51,420 nucleotides of DNA from Patescibacteria group bacterium (GTDB lineage Bacteria > Patescibacteriota > Minisyncoccia > Minisyncoccales > Staskawiczbacteraceae), in contig JBBTQB010000007.1 in NCBI GenBank assembly GCA_038065835.1, forward strand, positions 1-51,420, given 5' to 3'. This document shows positions 1,635 to 51,401 of this stretch, one piece after another; within the stretch, counting starts at the first letter, position 1; each line of letters begins with the position of its first letter. The position numbers and the translations under genes were made by a program. The notes under the pieces were generated by a model. That model was not told where the DNA came from. It saw only the letters and a list, made by a program, of their open reading frames with translations, and did not search any database.

Positions 1635-1639
1635 ACAAA

Positions 1640-1963: not shown

Positions 1964-2012
1964 AATATTTTATAATGATATAATTAATCAAAGGTCTCTA
2001 TTCACTAAAATT

Positions 2013-2210: not shown

Positions 2211-2214
2211 TGAA

Positions 2215-2403
2215 ATGATGAATATATTTAAATCCTTCACCTTAAAATAGTGGCAGGGTAGTTTGTTTAAAATAGCTTTGCTTTCTCTCGGCATTGCCAT
2301 TGGTGCCAATTGGCCTGAATTATTTGTTGATTGGACGGGTGTTTTTCTTATTCTATTTATAGTATTATCCGGTTACGTTACAATAGTATGGTGGAAACAG
2401 TAA
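2215..2403 (+). pseudogene. Second small two-helix membrane ORF interrupted by an in-frame TAG
   Basis: The frame from ATG 2215 reads MMNIFKSFTLK-TAG(2248-2250)-WQGSLFKIALLSLGIAIGANWPELFVDWTGVFLILFIVLSGYVTIVWWKQ-TAA. A TTG at about 2263 could be an alternative start. Confidence 0.25.
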
Positions 2404-2420
2404 ACTAAATAGTGCCTTCC

Positions 2421-2464
2421 AACTATCCCATCTTTTTTGCAATTGCAAAAAAGATGGGATAGTT
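2421..2464. terminator. Bidirectional rho-independent terminator between convergent genes
   Basis: Perfect 44-nt palindrome AACTATCCCATCTTTTTTGCAATTGCAAAAAAGATGGGATAGTT, with T-runs usable on either strand. Confidence 0.7.
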
Positions 2465-2731
2465 TTATTCTAGCGAAATAATTTGCAATCCTTTTCCTTT
2501 AATTTCTTGTTCTGACCAGAATGACTCATCAATTTTTAATTTAAAAACATACGTCGCCTTTTTCTCAACCTTTCTGCCGGTATACTCTTTTGTTTTTGGA
2601 TCCCACTCTTCTAATACCAATGTATCGCCTTCTCTTATATCAAAATCATTCAATCTTAAATCAAACTTCTTTTTTCCTGAAACAATATCGTCAAAATATC
2701 CCGGCCAAACTTTCTTCTTAGTTACTGCCAT
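2465..2731 (-). CDS. ASCH-fold / DUF3850-like small RNA-binding-type protein
   Basis: 88-aa ORF. The pattern G.KKFDLRLNDFDIREGDTLVLEEWD....YTGR resembles the DUF3850/ASCH family. Confidence 0.5.
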   Translation of the reverse strand: MAVTKKKVWPGYFDDIVSGKKKFDLRLNDFDIREGDTLVLEEWDPKTKEYTGRKVEKKATYVFKLKIDESFWSEQEIKGKGLQIISLE

Positions 2732-2757
2732 ATTTTTTATTAGATAATAATGTACTG

Positions 2758-3278
2758 CTACTCTTTACCATGACATTTCTTATAATAGGGAGAGCCTTTG
2801 GGAAAATTATACATTTGCCGAACATCTTCTAAGTCGGTGGATCTTGCAACAATGGATTTATAACCTATTAACTCATCTCTGTTAACAACTGGTAAACACA
2901 TCTCGTAAATAAGAAACATTTTTGATCTAGAAAAATCGGTAGGATAGTTAATCCATTCGCCCGTTTTTGCATCATGTATTTTAACTTTATATGCACCCCC
3001 CAAATCAATTGGCTGATTATGATAATTTAACGTTAATAACATTAAGTTAAAGTGATCAGATTTATGTAGATAAGGACCTTTAACTATGAATCTCCTAACA
3101 TAATCAGTTAATACATCGAACCTGTCCTCTGGTATATCTATGTCTATATCGTATAAGGGGCGAGTTGAACATAAATACGAGCAGCAAAACCAGCTGTTAT
3201 CTGATAAGGGATTCTGTGGCTTTTTAGAATACTGCTTATCCAGACTAAAGCATTTTTCACTTTACAATCATTTCCCAT
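2758..3278 (-). pseudogene. Nucleotidyltransferase-fold protein (aminoglycoside/lincosamide NTase-like) with a frameshift in a G4/C4 run
   Basis: ATG at 3278 (overlaps the secA stop by 11 nt) reads MGNDCKVKNALVWISSILKSHRIPYQITAGFAARIYVQLAPYTI-stop(3144). The -1 frame continues RPLYDIDIDIPEDRF... into ORF 2758-3042. One extra C in the CCCC run (plus-strand GGGG 3157-3160) would give the NTase motif ...LAPLYDIDIDIPE. Confidence 0.5.
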
Positions 3279-5831: not shown

Positions 5832-6698
5832 TCAGTTGAAGCTCAGCTCAACAGCTGAGGCTTCGGGATGTTCACCGTGCCCGATGTGGGGTTGGTAATC
5901 TTTCTCATCCCGCCATTTGAGAACAGCAGATATGCCACTGCTCTCGTACAGCCGTCCCAACTCATCCTTGTATCCTGGCCGGAAGTGACGATGCAAGAGG
6001 CCATCAGTACCAATGAGTACCCATAACACCTGATGGAGGTGGTCGATGTGCACCATTGTTCGATATTGAAGAACGGTTGGATCCCCGTTTAGCGTGGCCC
6101 AGCCGCCCTTGCCGATGTTCTTGTTGGCGTAACGCACGCGCTTTTCCTGGTAGTGCGGGTAGTACAGATTCCAGGCTTCGCCTTTGTTGCCACCAGCTTG
6201 CTCGAGGCACTTGCCATAGGCATTAATGTCCTGCTCCTCGACTTCGTGAGCGGCTTGGTCGAAACCAGACACGAAGTGGTACCCTTCCAAATCCTTCCAG
6301 AGCTGGAAGCAATCTCCCCCTAGAAATGTGAGAGCGACGTTATCGAAAATCCGACAGATGGCGAAGCTTGCTCCGCCCACATCGTCTCCATTGCAAGGAT
6401 CTTTGCCGATGCTCTGGTGCATTCGGCGGACTCCATCGTTTGTCTGGCGGAGAAAAGAGTAGAGATCAATAGGGCCATTCAAGGCTGCCGCATTGGCAGT
6501 GAGTACTATTGAGGCCATTTGCCCTCCCGTAAGCCCGCAACACGGGTAACGCACGGGTGGGTGCTTTGGGCAGTAGGCTGCCGAGTCGCCATCCGCAGTG
6601 GCATAGACCTGAGCTTCGTCGTTGCAGGATACCGCATCCTCCCTGATAGCCCTCTCATCCGACGGTGGACGGGAGAAGGGTTTGGCAGAAAATCTCAT
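5832..6698 (-). CDS. PP2C-like (PF13672-type) putative Ser/Thr phosphatase, compositionally foreign
   Basis: ATG at 6698 (MRFSAKPF) preceded by GGAGAG. Motif series REDAV, ATADGDSAAY, GGASFAI, GGDCFQLW, IGTDGLL resembles PP2C_2 metal-binding motifs. Clearly G+C-rich relative to both flanks. Confidence 0.5.
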   Translation of the reverse strand: MRFSAKPFSRPPSDERAIREDAVSCNDEAQVYATADGDSAAYCPKHPPVRYPCCGLTGGQMASIVLTANAAALNGPIDLYSFLRQTNDGVRRMHQSIGKDPCNGDDVGGASFAICRIFDNVALTFLGGDCFQLWKDLEGYHFVSGFDQAAHEVEEQDINAYGKCLEQAGGNKGEAWNLYYPHYQEKRVRYANKNIGKGGWATLNGDPTVLQYRTMVHIDHLHQVLWVLIGTDGLLHRHFRPGYKDELGRLYESSGISAVLKWRDEKDYQPHIGHGEHPEASAVELSFN

Positions 6699-6782
6699 GC
6701 ATCTCTCCACTGAAATGTGCTACTGCAGAAACCAAATCCCCCGCAGTATGGGTGCTAAGCAGAAATGCAAAGCATAGTAAAT

Positions 6783-8274: not shown

Positions 8275-9951
8275 TCATAACTTCAATAATTGATTAATTT
8301 TTGCTCTTGTTAAAACCCCCGCAAAGCCTGTTGATGAGATTTGGTACTTTTGTTGAAAACGAATTACTGCAGCTTTTGTAAGATTGCCAAAATACCCAGT
8401 TATAAGGCCTTCGGGATAAATATTTGAATCCTGGACTTTTAAAAATTGCTGCAGACACTTTACTTGGTCGCTTGCTTTAACACCAATATAAAGATTAACG
8501 CTTATTAAAGAGCAAAAAGAATTTGCGCTACTCCCTGCTTGTAAAGTGGCGATTTGTTTTTTTAAATAATCAATTTGCGCCAAGAGTTTTTGGATTACAA
8601 GCTGGTCTTCCTCTGGTACAGCCCCCGTAATTGAAACTTTAAAGGTATAAGGATAAGTAAACTCAAATCCGTCAAATCCTGAAGTTTTGGTATGTAAAAA
8701 AGGCATAATAACCAGAGAATTATATTTACTTCCAAAATTTTTAATGCTGATTTCTCCTTTTTCTTTTTGGTCTAACTGTATGAAATTTATTGAATAATTG
8801 TTATCCTTGTCAAAAATTATGTAGGGAACTGTAAAATCGAGTCCGGGTATGCTTTCAAATTCAAGCTTTAAGTCTCCATTGCCACCAATAATTTTTTGCC
8901 AGTTCCCTGACCAATTTTTCGTAACATTAGTAACTGACAAAGAACTATTTCCAGATAAAGGCAAGAAATTAAGAATTGGATTTATTCTTAAATTAGAAAG
9001 ATTTTTATTTAAAAAGCAATATTTTAAATCAGGAGAACAGTAATTAAGTGTCATGGCTATAGTCCAATTTGTAAAAATCTGTTTGAAATCCTCTTTATAT
9101 CCATTTTTCAAAAGGAGTTCATTTATACTGGCTATACCAATCAGCTTAGATTTTAACGAATCAGCTAAAATATTTATTCCGTAATGGTCTACTAAATAAT
9201 GAAAAAAAACATTTACCACTCCGTAGTCATGTTTTGTTTCCTGCCATTCAGTTAAAGAATCTGAGGGTTTTTCCAAAAAATCTTTAACTCTTTTTGCAAG
9301 ATTACTACTATCGTAAATATTATTGTATCCTAAAATGGTTGAAGCATAGTCTGCCCTTGCTTCATTCAACCAAACTTCTTCTTGCACACCATGCACTCTG
9401 TCTTTTTGATTAAAAGTTATCAAGTGAACAAACTCATGAGCTAAAGCAACTTTTAGCCTGGGGAAATTATCAATGTGAGCAATTGGCAAATAAAGCATCT
9501 CTCTTTCATTTGAGATTGGAGTTTGCAGTTTTATGTGTTCGTCTGCCGAACGGAAGTATCCGCCAACTCCATCTTTCATTGAATGGAACAAAATGGTAAT
9601 TCTTTTGTCGCCATCAACTCCAGGATTCCATTCAGATCCAAAAACAGAAGTTAGGATTGGATATATAGTACTGCCAAACTCCAGAGATAGGGCGTCTATA
9701 TAAGCTAAGATTTCACTCTGTTTTGCCGGTAATTGCGCTTCCCACCAGTTTTTTTCAACATAAAAATAAAGATTGGGGTAAGTTTTTACTAAAGTTGCTG
9801 AAATTTGTGATTTTTCACTAACTTCGAAGTTTTTATCCACATTAAAGTTTACGTAATCACTTGCATTGGCGATTTTGGCGAACGAGAAACTAAAAAAGAC
9901 AAAAACTAATCCTATAACAAAAAAAACAATTCTATATTTTTTCTTAGGCAT
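8275..9951 (-). CDS. Secreted gluzincin-type metallopeptidase with C-terminal peptidoglycan-binding domain
   Basis: Start uncertain (MPKKKYRIVFFVIGLVFVFF signal/anchor from ATG 9951). HEFVH plus WLNEARADY (HExxH...NExxA). C-terminal PG_binding_1-like YFGNLTKAAVIRFQQKYQI. Confidence 0.6.
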   Translation of the reverse strand: MPKKKYRIVFFVIGLVFVFFSFSFAKIANASDYVNFNVDKNFEVSEKSQISATLVKTYPNLYFYVEKNWWEAQLPAKQSEILAYIDALSLEFGSTIYPILTSVFGSEWNPGVDGDKRITILFHSMKDGVGGYFRSADEHIKLQTPISNEREMLYLPIAHIDNFPRLKVALAHEFVHLITFNQKDRVHGVQEEVWLNEARADYASTILGYNNIYDSSNLAKRVKDFLEKPSDSLTEWQETKHDYGVVNVFFHYLVDHYGINILADSLKSKLIGIASINELLLKNGYKEDFKQIFTNWTIAMTLNYCSPDLKYCFLNKNLSNLRINPILNFLPLSGNSSLSVTNVTKNWSGNWQKIIGGNGDLKLEFESIPGLDFTVPYIIFDKDNNYSINFIQLDQKEKGEISIKNFGSKYNSLVIMPFLHTKTSGFDGFEFTYPYTFKVSITGAVPEEDQLVIQKLLAQIDYLKKQIATLQAGSSANSFCSLISVNLYIGVKASDQVKCLQQFLKVQDSNIYPEGLITGYFGNLTKAAVIRFQQKYQISSTGFAGVLTRAKINQLLKL

Positions 9952-10007: not shown

Positions 10008-11864
10008 CTATTGGGTCTTATAATAGGGTGTAATATTTTTTAGGCCGGCAATAATTTCCTTGCTATTGCCTTTGTATAGTATATTTCTTAGTTTATTGAG
10101 ATCTTCCTTTATTGCATTAAAATTTACATCAGACATTTTTGCTATAAAAATCTTTTGGTTCTGCGTTACAACGGTTCCTTCTTCTGCCGTTAAAATTTCT
10201 TCGAATAATTTTTCCCCGGGTCTTATACCAGTAAAAACAATCGGTATATCCTTATCTGGTTTGTAACCTGATTGTTTAATCATTTCTTTTGCCAAGTTCA
10301 AAATTTTTATGGGTTTTCCCATATCTAAAACAAAAACTTCTCCTCCTTGGCCCATAGCTCCTGCCTGCATAACTAAAAGGCAGGCTTCAGAATTCAACAT
10401 AAAATATCTTTTCATTTCGGGATCCGTTACAGTAACTTCTTCTCCCCTTCTTATTTGCTCCCTGAATATCGGTATTACACTGCCCCTGCTATCCAAAACG
10501 TTTCCGAATCTTACTGAAATAAATTTCGTCTGATTTTTCTGATTATATGCCTGGCAAATCATTTCTCCGATTCTTTTGGTAGCCCCCATGACTGATATTG
10601 GGTTCACTGCTTTATCGGTGGAGATGAAAACAAGTTTCTCCACATCGCTTTGCAAGCTGGCTTTAACTAATATCTCAGTTCCAAAAATATTATTTTTAAC
10701 AGCTTGATCCGGCTGCATTTCCATTAAGGGTACGTGTTTGTAGGCCGCTGCGTGAAAAATTATCTGAGGCTTAAGGCTACTAAAAACATTTCTTATCTTT
10801 ATTTCATCTTTGATATCTGCAACGAATGATTTTATATCCAAACCGGAAAAATTTTTCTTGATTTCGCTTTCTACATTAAATATGCCTGTTTCATCTTGAT
10901 CCAAAAGTACTAACAAAGAAGGGTTAAACTTTGCAACTTGGCGTGACAGTTCAGAACCGATAGAGCCTGCGGCTCCAGTAATTAATACTCTTTTATCTCT
11001 TATAAAATTTTCAACTTGGCTTTTATCCAATGAAATCGGCTCCCTGCCTAATAAATTGCTGACATCAACATCTTTTAAGTTCTTTAAAGAAAGCTGGCTC
11101 TTGATAATAGCAAACACAGAAGGAACAATTTTTATTTTATACAAGCCGGCCTGTCGGCCTAGTTCAACTGCCTTTTTTATGAAATTATCGCCAGCCGAGG
11201 GAATGGCAATAATCAACTGCTTTATTTGGTGATTTTTGACAATATGGGGAATGTCTTGAATCTTGCCTAAAACCTTAATACCGTGGATTTTTACGCCTCT
11301 TTTAATAGGACTATCATCAACAAAACCAACAGGCAAGTAAGGATTTATTTTGGAAGATGAAATGTTTCTTAATATTTGCTCGCCGGCATCGCCAGCCCCA
11401 ACAATTAATGTCCTTTCTTTATTGGCCTTGCCACCTCTGCCTTTAATATTGAGATAAATCCTTTTAGAAAAACGAATCGCGCCACATAAGATAAAAACAA
11501 GAATATAACTTATAAAAATTGTTGATCGGGGAAAATTTTGAAAAAGGGGAAAATACTTGGAAATATAAATAGCAATAGCCCAAAAAATGAAGGCAATGGT
11601 GGTAGCTTTAAACAAAGATAAAGCCTCATTGACCGACACATAAGACCAGGAAAAAGAATACAATCTTTGGAAATAAAATATCGGTATAATAAAAACAACT
11701 GCCAGAATAGATAATCTCTCAATCAAAAAGTAATACCCGGGGGGAATCTCTCCCTCAAATCTTATAAAAAAAGAAAGCCAAATTGCCAAGGCAATAAAGA
11801 TAACATCGGCTAAAACAAAAAATAAAAATTTGATTATTGGATTTTCTTCAATTAAGTCCTTCAT
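10008..11864 (-). CDS. Membrane-anchored UDP-HexNAc 4,6-dehydratase (CapD/PglF/WbpM family)
   Basis: 618 aa. Four N-terminal helices, two Rossmann segments (LIVGAGDAGEQ, LITGAAGSIGSEL) and the CapD-type core. Confidence 0.85.
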   Translation of the reverse strand: MKDLIEENPIIKFLFFVLADVIFIALAIWLSFFIRFEGEIPPGYYFLIERLSILAVVFIIPIFYFQRLYSFSWSYVSVNEALSLFKATTIAFIFWAIAIYISKYFPLFQNFPRSTIFISYILVFILCGAIRFSKRIYLNIKGRGGKANKERTLIVGAGDAGEQILRNISSSKINPYLPVGFVDDSPIKRGVKIHGIKVLGKIQDIPHIVKNHQIKQLIIAIPSAGDNFIKKAVELGRQAGLYKIKIVPSVFAIIKSQLSLKNLKDVDVSNLLGREPISLDKSQVENFIRDKRVLITGAAGSIGSELSRQVAKFNPSLLVLLDQDETGIFNVESEIKKNFSGLDIKSFVADIKDEIKIRNVFSSLKPQIIFHAAAYKHVPLMEMQPDQAVKNNIFGTEILVKASLQSDVEKLVFISTDKAVNPISVMGATKRIGEMICQAYNQKNQTKFISVRFGNVLDSRGSVIPIFREQIRRGEEVTVTDPEMKRYFMLNSEACLLVMQAGAMGQGGEVFVLDMGKPIKILNLAKEMIKQSGYKPDKDIPIVFTGIRPGEKLFEEILTAEEGTVVTQNQKIFIAKMSDVNFNAIKEDLNKLRNILYKGNSKEIIAGLKNITPYYKTQ

Positions 11865-14690: not shown

Positions 14691-15443
14691 TTATAAATAG
14701 TCAATACTTTTCTTAATTACTTCAAGACTCTTCGGCCCTTCATTAAATAATAAATCAATTGCGGAAAGATTTTCCATAAATGGCTCAAATCTTTGGGGGT
14801 AAATTGGGTGTTTGAAGTCCGAAAAAACGAGCTTTAGATTATTATCTTTAAACTTTTCTATTTCAATATAGGATTTTCCACCTGATCCCGAAAGATAGCT
14901 GTTTGCCTTGAATTCCTTGCATAATTCAATTATTAAATCTGTTCTTTCCAGAACGGGATTTTTCGCTTCGCGAATAAATCTCGCGTTCAGACCTTTAAAA
15001 TCGTAATCAGAACTTTTGATAAGGGTGGTTTTAATGCCTAATTCCCTCTTGATATATTGAATGATAGTCTCGTTCAAATCCACCAATTTTTGCCATTTTT
15101 TTGAATAAAGCTTTTCAAAGAACCCGCTGTATTTGTCAAAAAATGGAGTTCTCTTGTAATTAAAATAAATAAGTTGCCAATGGTGTTTTGCCCAGGGAGT
15201 AGAATTGTCTATTTGAACTTCATTTATCTTTTGGTATCCCTTTTTGTTGGCAAGAACTGGCACTGTCAGCCAAACCCAGCCCTGAGAATTAGAGTTAGTT
15301 CTAATTCGGTTACGATTTTGAAATCCCTTTCTAGAGAATTGAAGATGGTCAACCAAAATAAATTCATCGGCTTTAGCCATCTTATAAAAAAAGCCGAGGT
15401 AAGGAAGGTATTCTGGCTGATGAGCAGAAATAGTCATAAACAT
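14691..15443 (-). CDS. WbqC-family protein (copy 1)
   Basis: 250 aa. N-terminal AHQPEYLPYLGFF and FQNRNRIRT are typical of PF08889. Confidence 0.75.
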   Translation of the reverse strand: MFMTISAHQPEYLPYLGFFYKMAKADEFILVDHLQFSRKGFQNRNRIRTNSNSQGWVWLTVPVLANKKGYQKINEVQIDNSTPWAKHHWQLIYFNYKRTPFFDKYSGFFEKLYSKKWQKLVDLNETIIQYIKRELGIKTTLIKSSDYDFKGLNARFIREAKNPVLERTDLIIELCKEFKANSYLSGSGGKSYIEIEKFKDNNLKLVFSDFKHPIYPQRFEPFMENLSAIDLLFNEGPKSLEVIKKSIDYL

Positions 15444-15450
15444 GACACAA

Positions 15451-15540
15451 ATCTACAAATTTAATGCAAATTTACAGATATGCGAATACGTATTTGCATA
15501 TTCGTAGATTGGCATTATTTGCATCGTATTCGTATCTTAC
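15451..15540. repeat. Family-D AT-rich repeat array (ATTCGTA / ATTTGCAT words, imperfect palindrome)
   Basis: Near-palindrome ATGCGAATACGTATTTGCAT (15480-15499). ATTTGCAT occurs three times (one inverted) and ATTCGTA twice to three times. Shares words with 38588-38672. Confidence 0.7.
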
Positions 15541-15543
15541 AAT

Positions 15544-16212
15544 TTATTCGGGGGGCTTGTTTACGCCCTCTTTACCATAAACTCCGCGTCTTGACAAAAC
15601 CGCAAAAAAACCTAAAAATAATATTTTAAAATCCAGCCAAAAAGACCGATTTTCAACATACCAGACATCTAATTCTAACCTTTCCCGCCAAGATGATACA
15701 AAACCTCTTCCTTTAATATCCACTAAACATATTAGGCCAGGTTTTACTGATACTCTCTTTTGCCAAAGTGTAGCTGGAAGAATATTTTGGTTAGGATACT
15801 GAGGTAGAGGCCTTGGCCCAACTAGACTCATTTCTCCTTTTAAAATATTAATAAATTGGGGCAGCTCATCAAGCGTCCATTCTCTTAAAAATCTGCCTAC
15901 TCTTGTAATGCGGAAATCATCTTTTGAAACTCCAAGACCTAAACCAATTTTTTCTGCATTTTCTACCATTGTTCTGAACTTTAAAAACTTAAATAACTTT
16001 CCATTCTTTCCTACTCTGTCTTGAATAAAAAAAATCGGGCCTTTAGAGTCCAACTTTATTAATAAGGCAATAAGTAAAAACAGAGGCATTAAAAAAACAA
16101 AGGCAATTAAAGTTATCGTGAAGTCAATTATATTTTTTACCCCGTTAAATAATTTTGCCTTTGGTAAAATTACCGCCCTGCGGTATTTAACTGGGTGAAT
16201 TTTTTCCTTCAT
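15544..16212 (-). CDS. Small monotopic phosphoglycosyltransferase (bacterial sugar transferase, PglC/WbaP C-terminal type), copy 1
   Basis: KLDSKGPIFFIQDRVGKNGKLFKFLKFRTM and DELPQFINILKGEMSLVGPRP. Residues about 5-25 are encoded by repeat 16139-16196. Confidence 0.85.
   Translation of the reverse strand: MKEKIHPVKYRRAVILPKAKLFNGVKNIIDFTITLIAFVFLMPLFLLIALLIKLDSKGPIFFIQDRVGKNGKLFKFLKFRTMVENAEKIGLGLGVSKDDFRITRVGRFLREWTLDELPQFINILKGEMSLVGPRPLPQYPNQNILPATLWQKRVSVKPGLICLVDIKGRGFVSSWRERLELDVWYVENRSFWLDFKILFLGFFAVLSRRGVYGKEGVNKPPE
16139..16196. repeat. Family-F structured element spanning the WbqC stop / PGT N-terminus
   Basis: Termini ACCCCGTTAAATA (16139-16151) and TATTTAACTGGGT (16184-16196). 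Inner hairpins ATTTTGCC-ttt-GGTAAAAT and TACCGC-cct-GCGGTA. Confidence 0.85.
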
Positions 16213-16903
16213 CTGAGTTAAATATTATCTGTTTGCTCTCAGGACCCTTATTAAATAATAAATCGATTGATGACATGTTTGGCACGAATGGTTCATATTT
16301 TTGTTTGTAAATAGGGTGTTTGAATTCGCAATATTGATGAGAAAGCCCTGCTTTTTTAAACTTTGATTCATCAACATAAAGCTTGCCACCCTGTCCTGAC
16401 AAATAACCTTCAGCCCCTATCTTTTTGCACATGTCCAAGAGCATATCTGTTTTTTCGCCGACAATATTGTAATCAGAGTTTCTTAAAATTTTAATATCAG
16501 TGTCCAATATTTTAAAAATAGTCCTTAAAATAGTTTCGTTTAAATCTACAAGTTTTTCCCATTTTTTTGAATATATTTCTTCAAAAAAGGGAATGTAATT
16601 TTCAAAAAAGGGAGTGCTTTTATAAGAGTAATATATTGATTTAAAATGTTTTTCCCTCCATTTTAATTTGTTATTTATTAAAACATCTTTTATCTTTTGA
16701 TGGAAACGCCCATGTGTTATAACAGGAACTGTTAGCCAAATCCAGCCATCGGGCCCATTTGAAGTTCTTATTCTATTTCTATTTTGAAACGATTTTTTGG
16801 CATATTGGGTATTGTCAACAAAAACAAAAGTATCGGCATGCATTGCCTTACAAATAAGGCCTATATAAGGGAGATATTCTGGCTGATGTCCTGCGATTAT
16901 CAT
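16187..16903 (-). CDS. WbqC-family protein (copy 2)
   Basis: 238 aa. GHQPEYLPYIGL and FQNRNRIRT. Its TAA stop (16187-16189) lies inside the repeat terminus. Confidence 0.75.
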   Translation of the reverse strand: MIIAGHQPEYLPYIGLICKAMHADTFVFVDNTQYAKKSFQNRNRIRTSNGPDGWIWLTVPVITHGRFHQKIKDVLINNKLKWREKHFKSIYYSYKSTPFFENYIPFFEEIYSKKWEKLVDLNETILRTIFKILDTDIKILRNSDYNIVGEKTDMLLDMCKKIGAEGYLSGQGGKLYVDESKFKKAGLSHQYCEFKHPIYKQKYEPFVPNMSSIDLLFNKGPESKQIIFNSDEGKNSPS

Positions 16904-16914
16904 ATTTAGATATT

Positions 16915-16981
16915 GGGTGTTTGGTGTTAGGTTTTGGCTTATAACGATTCCCCGTTATCTAATACCTAACACCTAAAACCC
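16915..16981. repeat. Intercistronic long hairpin
   Basis: GGGTGTTTGGTGTTAGGT (16915-16932) pairs with ACCTAACACCTAAAACCC (16964-16981) at 16/18 positions. Inner ATAACG-attcc-CGTTAT contains the CCCCGTTA word. Confidence 0.75.
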
Positions 16982-16993
16982 ATCACCTAGCGC

Positions 16994-17611
16994 CTACTCA
17001 TAATCTTTAGAAATTCCGTCTTTGTCATACTGCAAATTGGTCAGCAGAATCATAAAGGGGGTTAAAAATAATATCTTAGAATCCAGCCACAAAGACCAAT
17101 GTTCTATGTACCAAATGTCCCATATTATCCTTTGTTTCCAGGGGAGATTATTGCCTCCCTTTATTATATCCATATTTGTAATCCCAGGTTTCGCCAAAAG
17201 TCTTTTCTTTTCGAGCTCTGTATATTTGACCACTTGGTGGGGCGAAGCCGGCCTAGGGCCCACCAAAGACATGCCATCAAAAATAACATTTATAAGCTGA
17301 GGAATTTCATCTAGTCCAACTCTTCTTATAACTTTCCCAACTCTTGTGACTCTTGGGTCGTCTTTAGATGTTTCATATCTCATGCCAATATGTTCTGTGT
17401 TTTGCTGCATTGTTCTAAATTTTAGCATTATAAATTCTTTTCCATTCCTACCTACCCTTTTTTGCTTAAAAATCACGGGGCCTTTTGAATCAAGCTTTAT
17501 CAAGATAGCTATAACTAAACATAATGGACTCAATAATATAAGCAAAAAAATAGAAAATAAAAGATCTATTATATCTTTTATAACGTACTGAATAGTTAGG
17601 CTTTTTTTCAC
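16994..17611 (-). CDS. Small monotopic phosphoglycosyltransferase, copy 2
   Basis: 205 aa. KLDSKGPVIFKQKRVGRNGKEFIMLKFRTM and DEIPQLINVIFDGMSLVGPRP. GTG start at 17611 lies inside the repeat terminus. Confidence 0.85.
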   Translation of the reverse strand: MKKSLTIQYVIKDIIDLLFSIFLLILLSPLCLVIAILIKLDSKGPVIFKQKRVGRNGKEFIMLKFRTMQQNTEHIGMRYETSKDDPRVTRVGKVIRRVGLDEIPQLINVIFDGMSLVGPRPASPHQVVKYTELEKKRLLAKPGITNMDIIKGGNNLPWKQRIIWDIWYIEHWSLWLDSKILFLTPFMILLTNLQYDKDGISKDYE

Positions 17612-20900: not shown

Positions 20901-20921
20901 TATTTATAAAACTTAGTAATT

Positions 20922-20949
20922 AGAGTGCAGGATTCCAATCCTGCACTCT
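20922..20949. repeat. Family-A repeat, short hairpin form
   Basis: AGAGTGCAGGAT-tcca-ATCCTGCACTCT. Arms equal the outer 12 nt of the 51-bp palindrome arms. The last base overlaps the TAA stop of the epimerase gene. Confidence 0.9.
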
Positions 20950-21893
20950 TATTTCTCATGTTGCTTTTTGAACCAATCTACTGTTGAAGACAATCCCTTA
21001 TCTAAGTTGTATTGAGGCTGCCATCTAATAGCTCGTTTTGCCTTCTTAATAGACAAAGCTCCCCTTTTTAATACGCCTGTTGGCAAGGGAATATGTTTGG
21101 CTTCTTTTTTAAATCCGGTAATCTTCTTTAATTTATTAAAGATTTCCATAACTGAAGTTTCTCTGCCTGTGGCTACATTAATAATTCCATTGATATTTTT
21201 ATTGCAAGCAGCCATAGTAACTTTTATAGCATCATCAATAAAAATATAATCTTTTGTCTGCTTGCCGCTACCGTGGATAACACATTGTTTGCCCTGCAGC
21301 ATATTGTTAGCAAAAATTGCAACTACGCCCGCTTCTCCAAATGGATTCTGCCTGGGCCCATAAACATTACCGTAGCGCAGTGCCAAATAGCCTATGTTGT
21401 ACATCATAAAATAAGAATCCAAGTATTTCTCAAAAGCCAATTTGGCAACGCCGTAAGGAGATAAGGGACAAGGAAGATAATCTTCAGGTGTTGGCATGAC
21501 CTTTGCCCGGCCATATATTTCTCCTCCGCTAGAAGCAAAAACTATTTTTTTAACCCCAACACTGCGGCAGTTTTCCAAGATATTTAAACTTCCCAAAATA
21601 TTTGCTTTGGCATCAAAAATTGGATCTTTGACTGACTGCCTAGCTTCAATATGGGCGGCAAAATGAAAAACCATTTCCGGTTTTTCTTTCCTAAAAATAT
21701 TACCAATTTTAAAATCCGTAATGTCTTTTTTATAGAATTTAGCTCTCGCATTTATATTTTCCTTTTTACCGGCGGAAAGGTTATCAATAATAACTACTTT
21801 GTGGCCTTGTTCAAGCAGATTATCAACAAGATGGCTACCTATGAATCCGGCTCCACCAGTAACTAAGATATTTTTTTTGCTAAAACTTTTCAT
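20949..21893 (-). CDS. NAD-dependent sugar-nucleotide epimerase/dehydratase (GalE/WbpP-like SDR)
   Basis: 314 aa. ILVTGGAGFIGSHLV and catalytic SPYGVAKLAFEKY (YxxxK). Confidence 0.8.
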   Translation of the reverse strand: MKSFSKKNILVTGGAGFIGSHLVDNLLEQGHKVVIIDNLSAGKKENINARAKFYKKDITDFKIGNIFRKEKPEMVFHFAAHIEARQSVKDPIFDAKANILGSLNILENCRSVGVKKIVFASSGGEIYGRAKVMPTPEDYLPCPLSPYGVAKLAFEKYLDSYFMMYNIGYLALRYGNVYGPRQNPFGEAGVVAIFANNMLQGKQCVIHGSGKQTKDYIFIDDAIKVTMAACNKNINGIINVATGRETSVMEIFNKLKKITGFKKEAKHIPLPTGVLKRGALSIKKAKRAIRWQPQYNLDKGLSSTVDWFKKQHEK

Positions 21894-23503: not shown

Positions 23504-23670
23504 AATGTCATATGGGACATTTTGCTTACTCTTTGTTAATTTTTATTATTTACCTTATTTTAACCCATTGAAGTTTTAATTATCCTCATACAAACCCCGT
23601 TAGGGGTTTGTTTCTTTTGCATTTACCTTAAAACTCCTTGACCTCTAACGGGGCAAACTTCTAACGGAGT
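23481..23670. repeat. Family-B stop-to-start palindromic element (long copy 2)
   Basis: Termini ACCTCGTTAGAAGT (23481-23494) and ACTTCTAACGGAGT (23657-23670). Nested pair ACCCCGTTAGGGG (23594-23606) and ACCTCTAACGGGG (23641-23653). TGA of the upstream GT4 at 23671-23673 abuts it. High similarity to 33804-34027. Confidence 0.9.
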
Positions 23671-24687
23671 TCATCTTAAAACGTTATTGATTAAATCCAG
23701 CCATTCTTGGTTAAACCTTTCTATAGTAAAATCTTTGGCGTAATTATAACCTATCTGACCGATTTTTTTTCTTTCCTCTGAATTATTCAGTAAATATTCC
23801 ACCTTCTGTTTTAATTCCTTAAAATCGGTGCAAATTATCTGTCCCCCATTCTCCAATAACTCTCTCATTCCACCCATTCCAGAACCAATTGTAGGCACTT
23901 TCAAAAGCATTGCCTCATGAGTGGTCATAGACCAACCCTCTTTAAATTTAGACATCGTTACAACAACGGAAGATGCTTTCAGCAAGATTAAATAATTTTT
24001 ATAATCTAAATCAAGATTTAGCGTTGGGACTTCAACTTCTTTTCTGCCAGAGGTAACAAGATAAACATCTAAGTCTTTAAGCGCTTCATAAGCATCAACG
24101 ACACCTTTTGGTTTTTGACAGTTTCCAAGATATACTATCGGTTTTCCTTCTAACTTATATTTTTTCTTAAACTCTGAAACTTCTTCTGCTGTAATGTTAA
24201 AATTATTCATACTAAACCCGCAATAAATTTTGCAGACATTTTTGTATCCTTTCTCTAAAAAATAATTCTTCCAGTATTCAGATATTACAACAGTAGCATC
24301 TGCTCTTTTTACCTGAATGTAAAAAAAAGTTTTTTCTAATAAGGGTAACAGCAATCTTGGAATTAAACGAAACCCCGAAAAATCAATGTGAAAAATCAAA
24401 GTTAAGTTTTTGCCTCTTGTATTTTTTTTATTTAATGTGATTGTTGAATAAAAATCTCTTATCCAAAGGTCTTTTTTGCCTCTAAAAAACAAAAGCTTTA
24501 TAAAAGACTCTAAACTTTTAAGGTATCTGTTTTTAAAATAATTTGCCTCTAAATTTACGTACTCTACATCAAAAGTTCCAGATAAGGTGTTAATAACTTG
24601 ATTTTTGTAAATATTCCCCCCAGATCTTTTTGAAAAAATGTTAATCAAACCGATAGTTTCCATGATAGTTATACTGTTTCCCTCCAA
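23671..24687 (-). CDS. GT4-family glycosyltransferase
   Basis: 338 aa. C-terminal EGWSMTTHEAMLLKVPTIGSGMGGMRELLENG (E-x7-E). The true start may be ATG 24663 (METIGLINIF). Confidence 0.7.
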   Translation of the reverse strand: MEGNSITIMETIGLINIFSKRSGGNIYKNQVINTLSGTFDVEYVNLEANYFKNRYLKSLESFIKLLFFRGKKDLWIRDFYSTITLNKKNTRGKNLTLIFHIDFSGFRLIPRLLLPLLEKTFFYIQVKRADATVVISEYWKNYFLEKGYKNVCKIYCGFSMNNFNITAEEVSEFKKKYKLEGKPIVYLGNCQKPKGVVDAYEALKDLDVYLVTSGRKEVEVPTLNLDLDYKNYLILLKASSVVVTMSKFKEGWSMTTHEAMLLKVPTIGSGMGGMRELLENGGQIICTDFKELKQKVEYLLNNSEERKKIGQIGYNYAKDFTIERFNQEWLDLINNVLR

Positions 24688-25634: not shown

Positions 25635-25730
25635 TTATAATAATTTTAATAAAAATTGAAAGGCATAACATCATAGCTCTGATTAATAGACCTTACCACA
25701 AAAATCAGCTTATTTTCAAGTATTTATATT

Positions 25731-25897
25731 GTGAGCTTGGTGAATAATGCCATATTGGCGTCTTTATCTAAAATATCGGCTGCAAATTGGTAAAGATTAT
25801 TCAACGATGCCCTCTGGCATCGCCTCATAATCTTTACCAATTTTCGCTGTGATATTTTAAACAAATCCATCCAAAGAGCATTATTCACCAAGCTCAC
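25731..25897. repeat. 167-bp nested palindrome upstream of the SDR/GT4 sub-operon
   Basis: Perfect 20-bp inverted repeat GTGAGCTTGGTGAATAATGC (25731-25750) / GCATTATTCACCAAGCTCAC (25878-25897). Inside it are the 16-bp pair AATTGGTAAAGATTAT / ATAATCTTTACCAATT and the core GATGCC-ctct-GGCATC. Confidence 0.9.
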
Positions 25898-25921
25898 GTT
25901 ATAATGTACAAACATGGCGCG

Positions 25922-25963
25922 CACAGACACCGGGTGTCTGTGAGGCTGGGTGTCTGTGAGGCT
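25922..25963. promoter_or_regulatory. Iteron-like 10-mers (GGTGTCTGTG, two direct plus one inverted)
   Basis: CACAGACACC (25922-25931) is followed by the 16-nt unit GGGTGTCTGTGAGGCT repeated in tandem (25932-25947, 25948-25963). Directly downstream of the ParB-like gene terminator. Confidence 0.75.
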
Positions 25964-25990
25964 CACTATTTTTAAAATCAGGCATTAACA

Positions 25991-26019
25991 ATAAAAAAAG
26001 CTGCTAGTTTCCTAACAGC
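25991..26019 (-). terminator. Rho-independent terminator of the ParB-like gene
   Basis: Minus strand GCTGTTAG-GAAA-CTAGCAGC followed by TTTTTTTAT. Confidence 0.7.
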
Positions 26020-26040
26020 CTTTGGTGATGTTGGCTAGAT

Positions 26041-26871
26041 TTAAATATTTTTTAATTCTAGTTTCATAATCACCTGTTTGAGAACGCCGATGATTTGCCT
26101 GATCGTCGGATTAGGTTCAGGAAAACTTACCGATACCACAGCCCCATACAGAGTCTCAAAGGAACGTTTATAGCCTTTTTCTTTGCGGGGTCTTCCGCTG
26201 CGTTCTTTACGCTCTTCCTTACCCCTGTCTTTTGCATTATGCAACTGCTCGCGAAGTCTGCCACCAGGAATTTTTTCATCAATTACCTCTTGAAGAACCT
26301 TTGGCTGCTCCTTTTCGGGAATTCCTGATACTTGGTAAAGATTTTCCATTCCAACCTTGCTCGCTCCTGCTGAAGATGCGATCTTTTTAGCTTTTGGGCC
26401 AAGATTCTTAGCAACACTAAGCACCTTGCTAACCCATGATTCGCTTTTATGAACCATTGCTGCAATCTCTATTAAAGTTTTCTTGCGTTCTTCTTTATGA
26501 GCTAGCAACTCTTCTGCTAATTCTATGGGCGACAGATCTTCCCTATGAAGATTTTCGATCAGCCGGATTTTGCTAATGTTGCCATCGCTGATGTCAGCAA
26601 CAATTACCGGAATGGCATGCAAGTTGGCTAATTTGGCCGCTCGTCTGCGACGATCGCCGCATACGGTTTCATATCTCAAACTGCCCTTTTTAGGACGCGC
26701 TAACACCGGCTGAATTATGCCGACATCGGCGATACTCTGAGACAATTCCCTTAGGGAAGAGTCTCCCTTTGTAGGATCAACTGTCCTCAATGCTTTGGCC
26801 GGCGGCTCTAAATGTTTGACTTTCATCATCAAAAACTGAGGATTCCATTTTTCGATTCCGATGACAGCCAT
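26041..26871 (-). CDS. Orphan ParB/KorB-like DNA-binding protein (ParB N-terminal domain + HTH)
   Basis: 276 aa. Arginine patch GDRRRRAA, IENLHREDLSPIELAE, HTH-like SESWVSKVLSVAKNL, basic tail. Strong SD GGAGGT 5 nt before the ATG. G+C visibly above the neighbours. Confidence 0.75.
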   Translation of the reverse strand: MAVIGIEKWNPQFLMMKVKHLEPPAKALRTVDPTKGDSSLRELSQSIADVGIIQPVLARPKKGSLRYETVCGDRRRRAAKLANLHAIPVIVADISDGNISKIRLIENLHREDLSPIELAEELLAHKEERKKTLIEIAAMVHKSESWVSKVLSVAKNLGPKAKKIASSAGASKVGMENLYQVSGIPEKEQPKVLQEVIDEKIPGGRLREQLHNAKDRGKEERKERSGRPRKEKGYKRSFETLYGAVVSVSFPEPNPTIRQIIGVLKQVIMKLELKNI

Positions 26872-26921
26872 AGGTGACCTCCATGGAAAAAGTGTTTGTT
26901 AAGGTTCAGAACAACAGTTTT

Positions 26922-26950
26922 ATCATACAATAGTTTCGCTTAATTTACAA
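26922..26950 (-). promoter_or_regulatory. Sigma-70-type promoter of the ParB-like gene
   Basis: Minus strand TTGTAA (26950-26945), 17 nt spacer, TATGAT (26927-26922). Confidence 0.5.
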
Positions 26951-28897: not shown

Positions 28898-28948
28898 AGA
28901 GTGCAGGATTCGAACTATCATCAATTGATAGTTCGAATCCTGCACTCT
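28898..28948. repeat. Family-A 51-bp perfect palindrome (23-bp arms, 5-nt loop)
   Basis: AGAGTGCAGGATTCGAACTATCA-tcaat-TGATAGTTCGAATCCTGCACTCT. Contains the TGA stop of the methyltransferase and ends 15 nt before the GT4 ATG. Confidence 0.95.
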
Positions 28949-29946: not shown

Positions 29947-31439
29947 TTTTGTGATGTCAAAAACCTTTTTATTTCCTTGCAGATAAACTGGTAATTATTT
30001 TTATCATTTGGGTCTTTCGCATAAAGGATATCTGCCAAGATACTGTTCCTCAAATAAGAAATAATGAATCTCATATTAATTTCCTCCAAATTCACCCCGT
30101 TAGAGGTTTGCTTTGTTTCATTTTCTCTCAAGACTCCCTGATCTCTAATGGGGTTGGGTAAATCCCAATTTATTTGAAGGTCTCTTTTTATTTTTTCCTT
30201 TAAGTCTTCAAAGTTTACTACCTTTTGGCATAAAGGATGATAAGAATAAAATACGTTTCCCAAAACATAGACTGGTTTTCCCTGTATTGCCGCTTCCATG
30301 CCAACCGTGCTGGTCATGGTAATTACGCCTATTGAATTAGCAATAACGTTTGGCGTTGATTCTTCTGAAGACAACAATACAGCATTGGGTATTTTTTTTA
30401 TCTCTTCGTAAAACTGATTGGTCCTTGAGCCAATAGAGCCCGGATGCTCTTTTAAACATAATTTATAAGGAAATGGCAGGGTGGCTGAAACATATTTTAT
30501 GGTAGCTAACTGGTTTGAATAATAGGTTGCTAAAACTAAAGTTGAAGCTTCCGGCTCGTATTGAATAGGAAAAAAGAAATATTTGTCTTTTGAGCTAAGC
30601 TTATTAAATATATTTCCCTGGAGTTTGATTTTAATATTTTTTTTAATGGTTCTAAATGGAGCCATAAGGCTTCTCCTTAACACTGCCTCGCTTTCGTAGT
30701 CAAATCTCTTAACTTTGGACCTATCCAAAAAATACCTGAAGAAAACGTAGCTGGATTCTTTAAGTCTTCTTAAGTAATGTCTAATATAATCAAATAAACT
30801 AAATCTTACTTTGACTATATAATAAGAAGAATAAATGGTTTTGTGAGATATGAACTTTTTTATGAAATTTTTGGCAAATTCTGTTTCGCCCGGCAAAAAA
30901 TCTTCCTTTTTCAAATTTTTGAAATTATCTTCAAATTTTGAGCAGGTCCATTCTAAGTCCCAAATATCTATCCTACCCGGGAAGCGCGATTCGGCGATGC
31001 CACAAAAAGGAATATTATTTTTTTTAGTAAAATAGTAAGCCACCTCGCCAAAAAGCCCTGGCGGCGGTTCCCCAATTACAATATCTGGCTTTTCATAACT
31101 AAAAATGTAGTCAAAAAATTGATAAAGTTGATTTACTATATCCAAAGATTGATTGTAATTGTACCTATTATAAAGATTAAACCTTTCAAAAACAGTAAAA
31201 AGCTCTCTCCAGCTCAAATTCCCAAAGTCTTTTTTTGAAGAATCGTAGTTTTTAATGCACCAATCTATTTTTGATAAAAACTTGGAATTTTTAGGAAAAA
31301 ACTTGCCCTTTTCATACTCAGCAATCTTGCTGTTAAAAACAACCAAACATTCATCTCCTTCTTTTGTAAGCTGATGGGAAATCTTGCCTAAAAATTCAAA
31401 TAAATATGACGCATCATTTATTAAAAATAGCCATTTCAT
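29943..31439 (-). CDS. Capsule polysaccharide biosynthesis protein (KpsS/LpsZ-like, Capsule_synth family)
   Basis: 498 aa. YFFFPIQYEPEAS...CLKEHPGS...ITMTSTVGMEAAIQGKPVYVLG pattern. Carries the in-frame repeat 30094-30154 near the C-terminus. Confidence 0.5.
   Translation of the reverse strand: MKWLFLINDASYLFEFLGKISHQLTKEGDECLVVFNSKIAEYEKGKFFPKNSKFLSKIDWCIKNYDSSKKDFGNLSWRELFTVFERFNLYNRYNYNQSLDIVNQLYQFFDYIFSYEKPDIVIGEPPPGLFGEVAYYFTKKNNIPFCGIAESRFPGRIDIWDLEWTCSKFEDNFKNLKKEDFLPGETEFAKNFIKKFISHKTIYSSYYIVKVRFSLFDYIRHYLRRLKESSYVFFRYFLDRSKVKRFDYESEAVLRRSLMAPFRTIKKNIKIKLQGNIFNKLSSKDKYFFFPIQYEPEASTLVLATYYSNQLATIKYVSATLPFPYKLCLKEHPGSIGSRTNQFYEEIKKIPNAVLLSSEESTPNVIANSIGVITMTSTVGMEAAIQGKPVYVLGNVFYSYHPLCQKVVNFEDLKEKIKRDLQINWDLPNPIRDQGVLRENETKQTSNGVNLEEINMRFIISYLRNSILADILYAKDPNDKNNYQFICKEIKRFLTSQK
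30094..30154. repeat. Family-B core hairpin, intragenic and in frame
   Basis: ACCCCGTTAGAGGT (30094-30107) and ATCTCTAATGGGGT (30141-30154). About 80 percent identical by eye to the inner unit of 33951-34010. Translated NPIRDQGVLRENETKQTSNGV. Confidence 0.85.
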
Positions 31440-33805: not shown

Positions 33806-34027
33806 CCCGTTAGAAGTATGGGCAAAATGTTAATCATGAGACCTGGTCTTATCAACGAGGCCGGGTCTCGTTGTGACAATTTGCTTGCTCTTTGTTAATA
33901 ATTATCATATTAAATTTTGACTCATTAAAGCTTTTTACTACCTTATCCAAACCCCGTTAGAGGTTTGTTTCTTTTGCATTTACCTTAAAGCTCCTTGACC
34001 TCTAACGGGGCAAACTTCTAACGGGGT
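33804..34027. repeat. Family-B stop-to-start palindromic element (long copy 1, with nested insert)
   Basis: Termini ACCCCGTTAGAAGT (33804-33817) and ACTTCTAACGGGGT (34014-34027). Nested pair at 33951-33964 / 33998-34010. A 44-nt G+C-rich insert (33831-33874) splits a hairpin that is intact in the 23481-23670 copy. Confidence 0.9.
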
Positions 34028-34894
34028 TCATTCTTTTACACAATCAACCAAGAAAGCATTGGCCATGAAATGGCCGTACCAATCTTTTGATTTTTTTACT
34101 TCCAATTGTCTTTTAAATCTTTCTAACTTATCTTTATATTTATTTTCTATCAATCTAGGTAGGGGGAAAAAGCTATAAAAATATTTCTGCAATAACCTGA
34201 GTTTGTACTTAGCGAGTTCTTCACCAATCGTTAAGGGGTTGGTTGTTTCAACATAAATATTATCCCTAGCAATCTTAGCTGAATAATCTGGCTTGTTTGG
34301 GTGTGTTATTAGGCTCTCTAGGTCCTTAACTATGCCTTTGCCTAATAACTTTTCTAACCTCAACGGTTCAAAAAACTTCTCTTCAAAAAAATAAATGGTG
34401 TATTTATTGAAAGTGAATAAATCAAAAAGAGCGTTTTGGAAGGTAGCCATCATATGGCCTTTGGGTTTTAGTAAGCGATGAATTTTTATATACAATTGGC
34501 TTCTTTTTTTTGGAGGCAAATACTGAAATACTCCCATTAGAATAACAAAATCAAAAGAATTTTTAGGCAAGCTACCTAATTCTTTGATACTTCCCCTAAT
34601 AATGCTGTCTTCACTAAAACCCGCTTCTTTGAGACGTCCTTTTGCTAATCTGAATAATTCCTTGCCTTTTTCAATTCCCTTAGCTTTAATACCGAGCTTT
34701 AGCATTTTCAATAGCAAAGCTCCCCCGCCGCATCCAAAATCTAAGACAGTAATCTTGCTTTTATTTTTTTCTCTATACTCTGGCAGGATTAACTCAAGAA
34801 ATATTTCGTCTCTGGGAGCATGAGCTGAAAAATAACCTTCGGCTAAATCTTCAAAATACTTTTTTGTTTTTTTGGCATTATATTTATGAACCAT
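34028..34894 (-). CDS. Class I SAM-dependent methyltransferase
   Basis: 288 aa. Motif I VLDFGCGGGALL. Confidence 0.7.
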   Translation of the reverse strand: MVHKYNAKKTKKYFEDLAEGYFSAHAPRDEIFLELILPEYREKNKSKITVLDFGCGGGALLLKMLKLGIKAKGIEKGKELFRLAKGRLKEAGFSEDSIIRGSIKELGSLPKNSFDFVILMGVFQYLPPKKRSQLYIKIHRLLKPKGHMMATFQNALFDLFTFNKYTIYFFEEKFFEPLRLEKLLGKGIVKDLESLITHPNKPDYSAKIARDNIYVETTNPLTIGEELAKYKLRLLQKYFYSFFPLPRLIENKYKDKLERFKRQLEVKKSKDWYGHFMANAFLVDCVKE

Positions 34895-51369: not shown

Positions 51370-51401
51370 AGAGTGCAGGATTCGAACTATCATCAATTGA
51401 G
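51370..51401. repeat. Family-A repeat, solo left arm (AGAGTGCAGGATTCGAACTATCATCAATTGAG)
   Basis: The first 31 nt are identical to 28898-28928. Inverted copy of 19-51. Confidence 0.9.

Follow-up and report, generated by a model that had tools for sequence, protein, structure and literature searches.

An orphan ParB-family protein with altered catalytic residues, encoded as a separate unit within a surface-glycan gene cluster of an uncultivated Patescibacteria lineage

Results

The ParB gene and its setting

The stretch of DNA analysed here, called the window throughout, comprises 51,420 nucleotides of a Patescibacteria group bacterium (JBBTQB010000007.1) and is essentially the whole of a 51,423-nt contig from the 0.1-µm filter fraction of Hainich groundwater (ENA ERZ1292643). 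We have focused on one gene of its minus strand (26041-26871), which encodes a 276-amino-acid ParB-family protein of the CTP-switch type and stands among genes for sugar modification and glycosyl transfer. This glycan cluster fills most of the region from 10 to 51 kb (approximately 40 kb), and all 42 long open reading frames (ORFs) used in the analysis lie on the minus strand. The contig is considered chromosomal, because SecA, MurB and uracil-DNA glycosylase (UDG) are also encoded on it; its SecA is nearest to Patescibacteria, the best segment having 71% identity to Ca. Staskawiczbacteria in a scan of GTDB species genomes. A gene for a TylF-type methyltransferase lies 108 nt upstream of the ParB gene and an Rmd-like gene follows it. 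An earlier sequence-only reading had described the ParB gene as an autonomous unit that separates the glycan genes, and this was borne out, since the gene forms a transcription unit of its own which splits the cluster.

The same reading had recognized a ParB N-terminal domain (GDRRRRAA, residues 72-79) and a helix-turn-helix (HTH), an assignment now confirmed by Pfam, the NCBIfam model TIGR00180, AlphaFold2 and Foldseek. ParB_N (PF02195) matched at 2.7e-19 and TIGR00180 at 3.6e-29 (101.9 bits, above the cut-off of 58.45), whereas HTH_ParB remained below its gathering cut-off (8.9e-4, 19.8 bits versus 22.6). Despite this sub-threshold score the HTH DNA-binding domain could be recognized in the AlphaFold2 model (mean pLDDT 86), where the region reaches a pLDDT above 90 and approximately 200 columns can be aligned with structures of the N-terminal and DNA-binding domains of ParB, Noc and KorB. 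The protein is composed of an N-terminal nucleotide-binding domain, the HTH domain, a K/R-rich linker with a conserved GRP motif and a predicted C-terminal beta-beta-alpha domain, and a long helix is modelled between the DNA-binding domain and the linker. The C-terminal fold is predicted at residues 234-275 (pLDDT 75-85) in a segment kept across the clade described below; ParB_C (PF23552) gave no match in the protein, and no solved C-terminal domain matched the model. The motifs of the superfamily, Box I, GxRR (Box II) and ENxxR (Box III), are all present.

The best Foldseek matches of the model were ParB, Noc, Spo0J and KorB, with the highest TM-score for KorB (0.60/0.76). By sequence, the search of the PDB returned ParB, Spo0J and Noc, and KorB more weakly, in line with phmmer (2.6e-20 to Spo0J, 8e-6 to KorB). 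At the sequence level the protein is nearer to chromosomal ParB and Noc than to KorB, and it reaches only 97.5 bits with the Noc model TIGR04285, the cut-off of which is 315.

Relatives of the protein are scarce. When 5.8 billion proteins were searched with a word index, a single close homologue appeared (P0002, 64% identity); full-length relatives among 1.84 billion representatives, searched exhaustively by HMM, were few. The window ParB, P0002 and P0047 are referred to below as the orphan trio; a scan of 185,579 GTDB species genomes with the trio alignment found no relative. A metagenome scan returned generic ParBs only (at most 45% identity, over the N-terminal domain), and tblastn against plasmid and phage databases gave no match spanning at least 80% of the protein.

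Absence of ParA from the window and the ParA-linked clade

No ParA was found anywhere in the 51-kb window by tblastn with three ParA queries, and the Pfam results for the window ORFs contained no replication or integrase domain, as the sequence-only reading had stated. Among the 80 metagenomic ParB relatives for which upstream sequence could be obtained, most have a ParA match approximately 100-450 nt upstream. In a neighbour-joining distance tree, built from a limited sample with 200 bootstraps, the window ParB was joined with P0002 in 200/200 replicates and with P0047 in 199/200, and the trio belonged to a 23-member clade (191/200) standing apart from the canonical ParB and Noc sequences sampled. 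Five relatives with a longer N-terminus were looked up: P0194, P0180 and P0196 belong to the clade, P0197 joins next to it, and P0307, which is outside the tree, is of the same long type and was the best full-length hit of P0047. In every case the gene overlaps its upstream neighbour at the latter's 3' end; this neighbour is a parA, recognized by Pfam or tblastn, at four of the loci and a parA-sized gene with no annotation at P0307. Genes of conjugation or replication are present on four of these contigs as well (TrwC relaxase, TraG/TrwB-type coupling proteins, Replic_Relax, RPA replication initiator, integrase or Toprim); no such gene was present on the fifth, the contig of P0196.

The ParA-linked proteins (P0180, P0194, P0196, P0307 and others) share with the window ParB full-length homology, the GRP motif of the linker and the C-terminal domain. 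They differ from it by an N-terminal extension of 30-45 amino acids, by the retained catalytic Q and E residues and by the overlapping parA or parA-sized gene, and the genomes of the other clade members have 52-65% G+C. The window ParB would then descend from a lineage paired with ParA on plasmids and conjugative elements, and to this extent the suggestion that the gene derives from a plasmid or phage partition module is supported, with the clade, its parA linkage and the plasmid- or ICE-like contigs speaking for an origin of the plasmid type.

Known binding sites of the family were also sought in the window. Canonical parS (TGTTNCACGTGAAACA) gave one match with 3 mismatches in 51 kb, which equals chance expectation, and the Noc binding site (NBS) was not found at up to 2 mismatches. 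On a plasmid-like contig with a ParB of the same clade (L009, region 8871-8975 and 11289-11451), two parS-like palindromes GGTTTCGTTAACGAAACC stand upstream of parA and six 23-nt iterons (TCGACCAGTTAGGAAG...) upstream of the gene for an RPA-type replication initiator; this type of palindrome was not found in the window.

Shortened N-terminus and altered catalytic residues

The 30-45-residue extension is present in all longer members of the clade and missing from the trio, and the window ORF cannot start earlier because an in-frame TAA is located 10 codons upstream. The ParA-binding motif [LIFVM]G[KR]G[LIFVM], present in 66 of 83 canonical-like sequences, is absent from the window ParB. Additionally, both residues that are catalytic for CTP hydrolysis in Myxococcus ParB are changed. 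The glutamine of the QPR motif is Q in 88 of 91 aligned ParBs, and is replaced by A in the window protein (A27) and by V in P0002; in a separate alignment of 22 sequences which included P0047, Q was found in 19 and P0047 has P. The glutamate of GERR is E in 89 of 91 sequences, and the trio has D (D73 in the window ParB). On the other hand the residues of CTP binding (R29, G72, R74, R75, E106, N107 and R110) are conserved. A shorter relative of 243 amino acids (L077, 1360-2091), with no ParA within 1.4 kb upstream, has GLR without the Gln and keeps GERR, and loss of the QPR glutamine may recur among orphan ParBs.

In Myxococcus xanthus ParB the catalytic residues are Q52 and E93; the Q52A variant binds CTP, loads and stays locked in the closed state on DNA, and partition in this organism requires CTP hydrolysis (bioRxiv 10.1101/2021.05.05.442810). 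VirB, which is without one of the two catalytic residues, has very weak CTPase activity and serves gene regulation (PMC10770331). KorB has GARRYR, with no Glu, yet its dimer turns over 60-90 CTP each hour (PMC11790492).

These findings bear on the possibility that the window ParB is a working chromosome-partition or SMC-loading protein, the ParA (if any) and parS of which are located elsewhere in the genome. The general ParB model TIGR00180 is passed, among solved structures the nearest by sequence are those of chromosomal Spo0J/ParB and Noc, and the contig is chromosomal and is the only one of this genome that the analysis saw. Against these points stand the membership in a clade of mobile-element ParBs, apart from the canonical sequences sampled, the missing LG[KR]GL-type motif and N-terminal extension, the exchange of both catalytic residues, given that partition in M. 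xanthus depends on CTP hydrolysis, and the absence of a parS-like site from the 51 kb. Furthermore, the orthologue lies in a different, non-origin context, and the protein is extremely rare, with one close homologue in the protein search and none in the GTDB species genomes. We consider a role in partition or SMC loading rather improbable.

Expression signals and conservation of the unit

The ParB gene is accompanied by expression signals of its own, all of them read on the minus strand. The promoter-like site that had been noted, TTGTAA (26950-26945)-N17-TATGAT (26927-26922), is present at 26922-26950 with 9 of 12 consensus positions. Taken alone it is weak evidence, because matches of this class are frequent (14 occurrences in 3 kb versus 7.3 expected), but it aligns with TTGAAG-N17-TAACAT upstream of the P0002 gene (locus L007). 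In the 5' untranslated region (5'UTR) an element with the inverted repeat GTTC-N-GAAC (GTTCTGAACCTTAACAAAC, 26894-26912) was recognized by sequence comparison, which has no second copy in the window even when 3 mismatches are allowed, and which has counterparts in L007 (GTTTTGAACATTGACA) and in a second orthologue locus, L174 (GTTCATTTGAACCTTTTGACAAAC), each just upstream of GGAGGT. The RNA of the 5'UTR is unstructured (z = +0.65), therefore the element is read as a candidate operator acting at the DNA level.

The Shine-Dalgarno (SD) sequence GGAGGT (26877-26882), with a 5-nt spacer to the ATG at 26871, proved to be even more exceptional than the sequence-only reading had claimed. Among the 42 long ORFs only ParB has an SD match of at least 6 nt at its first start codon, and in 36 of the 41 others there is no match of even 4 nt, the upstream regions being A/T-rich. 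When any in-frame start within the first 60 codons was allowed, two other ORFs with a strong SD core appeared, at internal GTG/TTG codons. Apart from ParB the contig is a genome segment essentially without SD usage. GGAGGT is found at the orthologue loci as well, with a 5-nt spacer in L007/L008 and a 9-nt spacer in L174. Behind the gene the expected intrinsic terminator with a GAAA loop is present at 25989-26023 (12-bp stem, run of 7 U, -17.7 kcal/mol, z = -4.2), and analogous terminators occur in L007 and L174. The G+C content of the gene is 44.2%, compared to 35.2% for the window; the difference from its surroundings is real but not unique, since the Rmd-like gene has 42.0% and an ORF at 5832-6710 has 54.8%. 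The elevated G+C, the sole strong SD in an SD-poor genome and the relatives in genomes of 52-65% G+C make a foreign origin of the ParB gene probable.

The P0002 locus (L007) belongs to a low-GC genome in which the unit is located upstream of nusA, outside any glycan cluster. Homology between the window and this locus extends from the -35 region through the terminator and ends there, and the SD and the 5'UTR element are kept also in L174, from a 64%-GC genome. Comparison of the flanks of the window gene and of L007 by k-mers of 9-13 nt (at most 2 mismatches) and by 6-nt half-sites revealed no shared motif, returning only AT-rich low-complexity sequence, the SD and terminator tails. The 5'UTR element is the only conserved non-coding element outside the expression signals. 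Between the window ParB and P0002 we obtained pN 0.22 and a saturated pS of 0.82 (pN/pS approximately 0.27), and from these values the gene is judged to be under purifying selection.

It might be supposed that the gene is a leftover, now without function, of an integrated partition module from a plasmid, as ParA, the N-terminal extension and the catalytic residues have been lost. The ORF is, however, intact in three lineages, the low pN/pS is seen in spite of a saturated pS, all nucleotide-binding residues are conserved, and so are the promoter, UTR, SD and terminator. A relic in this sense is very improbable: the plasmid-type ancestry proposed earlier stands, while the decay implied by the word remnant does not, the unit being conserved even in another genomic context.

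Repeats and hairpin downstream of the ParB gene

The intergenic region downstream of the ParB gene (36% G+C) contains two conspicuous structures. At 25922-25963 a repeat cluster consists of two copies of the 16-mer GGGTGTCTGTGAGGCT (25932-25963) and an inverted 10-mer (25922-25931), which is the core of the 16-mer, and includes a perfect 21-bp (10+1+10) palindrome CACAGACACC-C-GGTGTCTGTG. The exact 10-mer core is found nowhere else in the window, and has 4 matches at up to 1 mismatch, a number reached by 0/100 shuffles. The tandem repeats noticed earlier are thus real, though the term iterons is too strong for two copies and one inverted core. The large palindrome reported beside them was confirmed at 25724-25904: it is an imperfect, MITE/ERIC-like palindrome of 181 nt with 54-nt arms and nested 28-nt arms, and the intergenic fold around it has z = -14.8. 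Three independent assemblies end inside it, at 25867. It is single-copy within the window and has no counterpart in the fetched loci. The intergenic region had no blastn match among plasmids, Rfam returned no family for the hairpin or the repeats at gathering thresholds or permissive E-values, and no tRNA or tmRNA was found. Identity with an integron attC site was rejected by eye, as the R''/R' core sites and an integrase are missing. The strain variants L177 and L178 are uninformative for covariation because they are 99.9% identical at approximately 4x coverage.

The recognition-helix segment HKSESWV is identical in the window ParB and P0002, yet the DNA downstream of the two genes is unlike, which argues against the window palindromes as the cognate site; ParB therefore probably does not bind the adjacent repeats or the palindrome. 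In L007 the ParB gene is followed by approximately 380 nt of structured repeats with three hairpin units of about 90 nt, directly 5' of nusA. In this segment (1020-1370) a strong promoter-like TTGACA-N17-TATTAT is followed approximately 40 nt later by a small terminator-like hairpin and then by the hairpin units, the middle one showing compensatory changes in the stem; the loop CCAAGGTATA is conserved.

The same observations are relevant to the idea that the protein acts as a KorB-, VirB- or Noc-like long-range regulator of the surrounding glycan genes, which would load at the 21-bp palindrome or direct repeats and slide into the Rmd-like/glycosyltransferase operon or the upstream genes. The position in the middle of a cluster of approximately 40 kb with all genes on one strand is suggestive, the palindrome and repeats, situated between the terminator of ParB and the operon that follows, have no further copies in the window, and the loss of catalytic residues recalls VirB. 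Moreover, the terminator would stop read-through from upstream, so the downstream genes would need control of their own. Nevertheless, the orthologue with the identical recognition-helix segment adjoins nusA instead of glycan genes, its downstream region shares neither a motif nor a palindrome half-site with the window, and no partner such as KorA is evident. Palindromic intergenic elements are in addition a habit of this genome, because several other such families occur in the window. Control of the glycan genes by ParB is possible, but loading from these repeats as a long-range regulator is unlikely.

Another explanation would be that the gene is cargo or part of a small, perhaps formerly, mobile element, which includes the downstream repeats and the hairpin as a MITE-like end or a centromere-like site and serves the element rather than the host. 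Plasmid centromeres are often located directly downstream of parB (P1 parS, F sopC), the unit is found in a different context in each genome and is each time followed by approximately 400 nt of repeat-rich, strongly structured non-coding DNA, and its G+C and SD usage look foreign. However, no transposase, integrase or replication gene is present in the window, the downstream regions of the window and L007 are not homologous, the intergenic 36% G+C is host-like and direct repeats at the flanks were not seen. Moreover, the locus does not vary between several wells and samples, none of which showed an empty site, and we give this explanation little credit.

A 10-nt repeat core beside a ParB-like gene in a host of the CPR could finally recall the TasParB of TIGR-Tas RNA-guided systems, which are frequent in CPR bacteria and phages and where ParB-like genes sometimes occur in operons with tasA next to TIGR arrays on 10-nt repeats (PMC12045711). 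Such an array would alternate two repeats of 8-12 nt with 9-nt spacers; Tandem Repeats Finder detected none, showing only the 16-mer in two copies, and no Nop domain was found in the ORFs scanned or in those with precomputed Pfam results. With both defining features, the array and a tas gene with a Nop domain, missing, TIGR-Tas identity was rejected and can be retained only as an extremely improbable case.

Other features of the contig

Several further repeats were recorded. A perfect palindrome with 23-nt arms (AGAGTGCAGGATTCGAACTATCA / TGATAGTTCGAATCCTGCACTCT) occurs at 28898-28948, 20915-20956, 27-54 and 51370-51400, thus with copies at both contig ends, and assembly L002 breaks at 28922; the string GGATTCGAAC inside it recalls the T-arm of tRNA. 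An intergenic REP/MITE-like family of approximately 60-118 nt (23557-23674, 33914-34031 and 30094-30153, with shorter copies near 17607 and 33801) forms hairpins built on ACCCCGTTAGAGGTTTG, often directly 5' of gene starts. A perfect 44-bp palindrome (AACTATCCCATCTTTTTTGCAA / TTGCAAAAAAGATGGGATAGTT) is situated at 2421-2464, in approximately 1.6 kb (1635-3267) without a long minus-strand ORF. The region 14691-17611 is a tandem duplication with a period of approximately 1.46-1.5 kb and 72-77% nucleotide identity, in which the duplicated pair is a WbqC-like gene and a sugar transferase gene (Bac_transf).

The high-GC ORF at 5832-6710 (minus strand, 292 amino acids) is located between a small hibernation-factor-like ORF and SecA; it has no Pfam match, reads as a real protein with a GTDGL-type motif and a likely internal ATG start preceded by an SD-like GGAGAG site, and is probably another foreign gene. 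An exact palindrome TTTAGCCGCTAAA, which we take to be identical with the consensus of the RK2 KorB operator (OB), was noticed at 50706-50718 inside a cytidylyltransferase gene, 24 kb from ParB. An exact match was reached in 0/100 shuffles; the pattern was one of several tried and has no copy in the orthologue loci, and the palindrome is probably a coincidence. The PADLOC scan for defence systems gave a marginal match only, by way of a ParB-like domain in a methyltransferase model.

Discussion

Judged on one contig, the window gene encodes an orphan, that is, a ParB homologue with the CTPase fold outside a parAB operon. Orphan ParBs are common, are linked to mobile elements and are without the ParA-binding motif (PMC12704722; bioRxiv 10.1101/2025.10.10.680097). 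The window ParB resembles the orphans of that study (PMC12704722) in its position outside a parAB operon, in the canonical order of its domains, for which TIGR00180 is positive, in the missing ParA-binding motif and in its relatives on mobile elements; it is unlike them in belonging to a very rare lineage found in Patescibacteria, in the Q-to-A and E-to-D changes and in its conserved regulatory unit. Since such orphans had already been described in 2025, the protein belongs to a known kind, and what is new here are some attractive particulars: the double catalytic change, a strong SD in an SD-poor genome and the extreme rarity.

Comparison with the characterized members of the family places the protein between several of them. 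With chromosomal ParB/Spo0J and Noc, its best matches in the PDB both by sequence and by profile, it has the three-domain layout and Boxes I to III in common, whereas it stands without a neighbouring parA, without LG[KR]GL, without parS or NBS in the window and with both catalytic residues changed. None of the attributes of a canonical ParABS ParB, namely an adjacent parA, the ParA-binding motif, the catalytic Gln and Glu and a parS nearby, was found within the 51 kb. VirB of Shigella flexneri offers a closer functional parallel, as it is derived from a plasmid ParB, has no ParA partner and has kept the CTP-binding residues with catalytic residue(s) missing; with its very weak CTPase activity it forms a long-lived clamp for gene regulation (PMC10770331). 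It differs in descending from a P1-type ParB and in counteracting H-NS at virS, while the window ParB is nearer to ParB of the chromosomal type.

KorB of RK2 likewise combines a ParB-CTPase domain with an HTH and departs from GERR, and it gave the best structural agreement with our model. The KorB clamp is used for transcriptional repression including autoregulation, which is the role that the window ParB may play. The sequence match between the two is weak, the plasmid partners of KorB, namely KorA, TrbA and IncC, are not found here, the context of the window gene is chromosomal, and KorB still hydrolyses CTP.

On balance we favour, with some confidence but far from certainty, the view that the window ParB is a horizontally acquired orphan CTP-switch clamp, kept by selection and probably autoregulated, which has a regulatory rather than a partitioning function. 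According to this model a self-contained unit composed of promoter, operator-like inverted repeat, strong SD, ORF and terminator was acquired horizontally, and the N-terminal extension and both residues that catalyse CTP hydrolysis in M. xanthus ParB would have been lost relative to the ParA-linked members, with those for CTP binding and clamp closing all retained. The dimer would bind a specific site, the best candidate for which is GTTC-N-GAAC between the promoter and the SD of its own gene. Binding of CTP would close the clamp around DNA, and hydrolysis, predicted to be slow, would allow long residence there. In this position the clamp could repress the promoter of its own gene and serve in regulation or in organising the nucleoid, and not as an adaptor of ParA-driven partition. 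The interpretation of the sequence-only reading is in this way partly supported: the ParB type, the absence of ParA from the contig, the separate unit and the plasmid-type origin are in agreement with it, and the decaying remnant is not.

Several points weigh against this model. GTTC-N-GAAC is short, and the conservation of the UTR could reflect mere shared ancestry. KorB hydrolyses CTP even without the Glu and the E-to-D exchange is conservative, so that slow hydrolysis by the window ParB is a prediction and not a result. The absence of ParA refers to one contig, and other parts of the genome may encode ParA or a canonical parAB; the contigs of the orthologues are short as well, with 144 nt upstream of the gene in L007 and 40 nt in L174, where the frame is still open at the contig edge. 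As to the phylogeny, it was obtained by a distance method from a limited sample. Lastly, the canonical ParA-binding motif is present in no member of the clade, including the ParA-linked ones, consequently the N-terminal extension is taken for the ParA-interacting part from its distribution only.

A more far-reaching combination of these elements can also be formulated. Patescibacteria and at least one unrelated high-GC bacterium might have captured a ParA-independent, "Q52A-like" CTP-locked clamp that travels as a cassette with its own operator and strong SD, entering even genomes in which SD sites are otherwise not used, and which in the present genome would serve as a long-lived regulator or insulator of the surface-glycan cluster, loading at the 5'UTR or at the adjacent palindrome. 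This full combination is improbable as a whole; if it were true, a mechanism of the VirB/KorB style would operate in an ultra-small episymbiont.

Conclusions

Orphan ParB-CTPase proteins are widespread, and only few of them (Noc, VirB and KorB) have a known job. Should the window ParB turn out to be merely another DNA-binding orphan, the present analysis would amount to a useful but ordinary annotation. What it offers beyond this is a natural variant in which the residues of hydrolysis are replaced and those of binding are kept, in a compact protein of 276 amino acids encoded beside a candidate operator, and probably acquired horizontally by an uncultivated Patescibacteria lineage, within its surface-glycan island. 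As such it can serve as a test case for CTP-locked clamps outside partition, and for the domestication of a partition protein of mobile elements.

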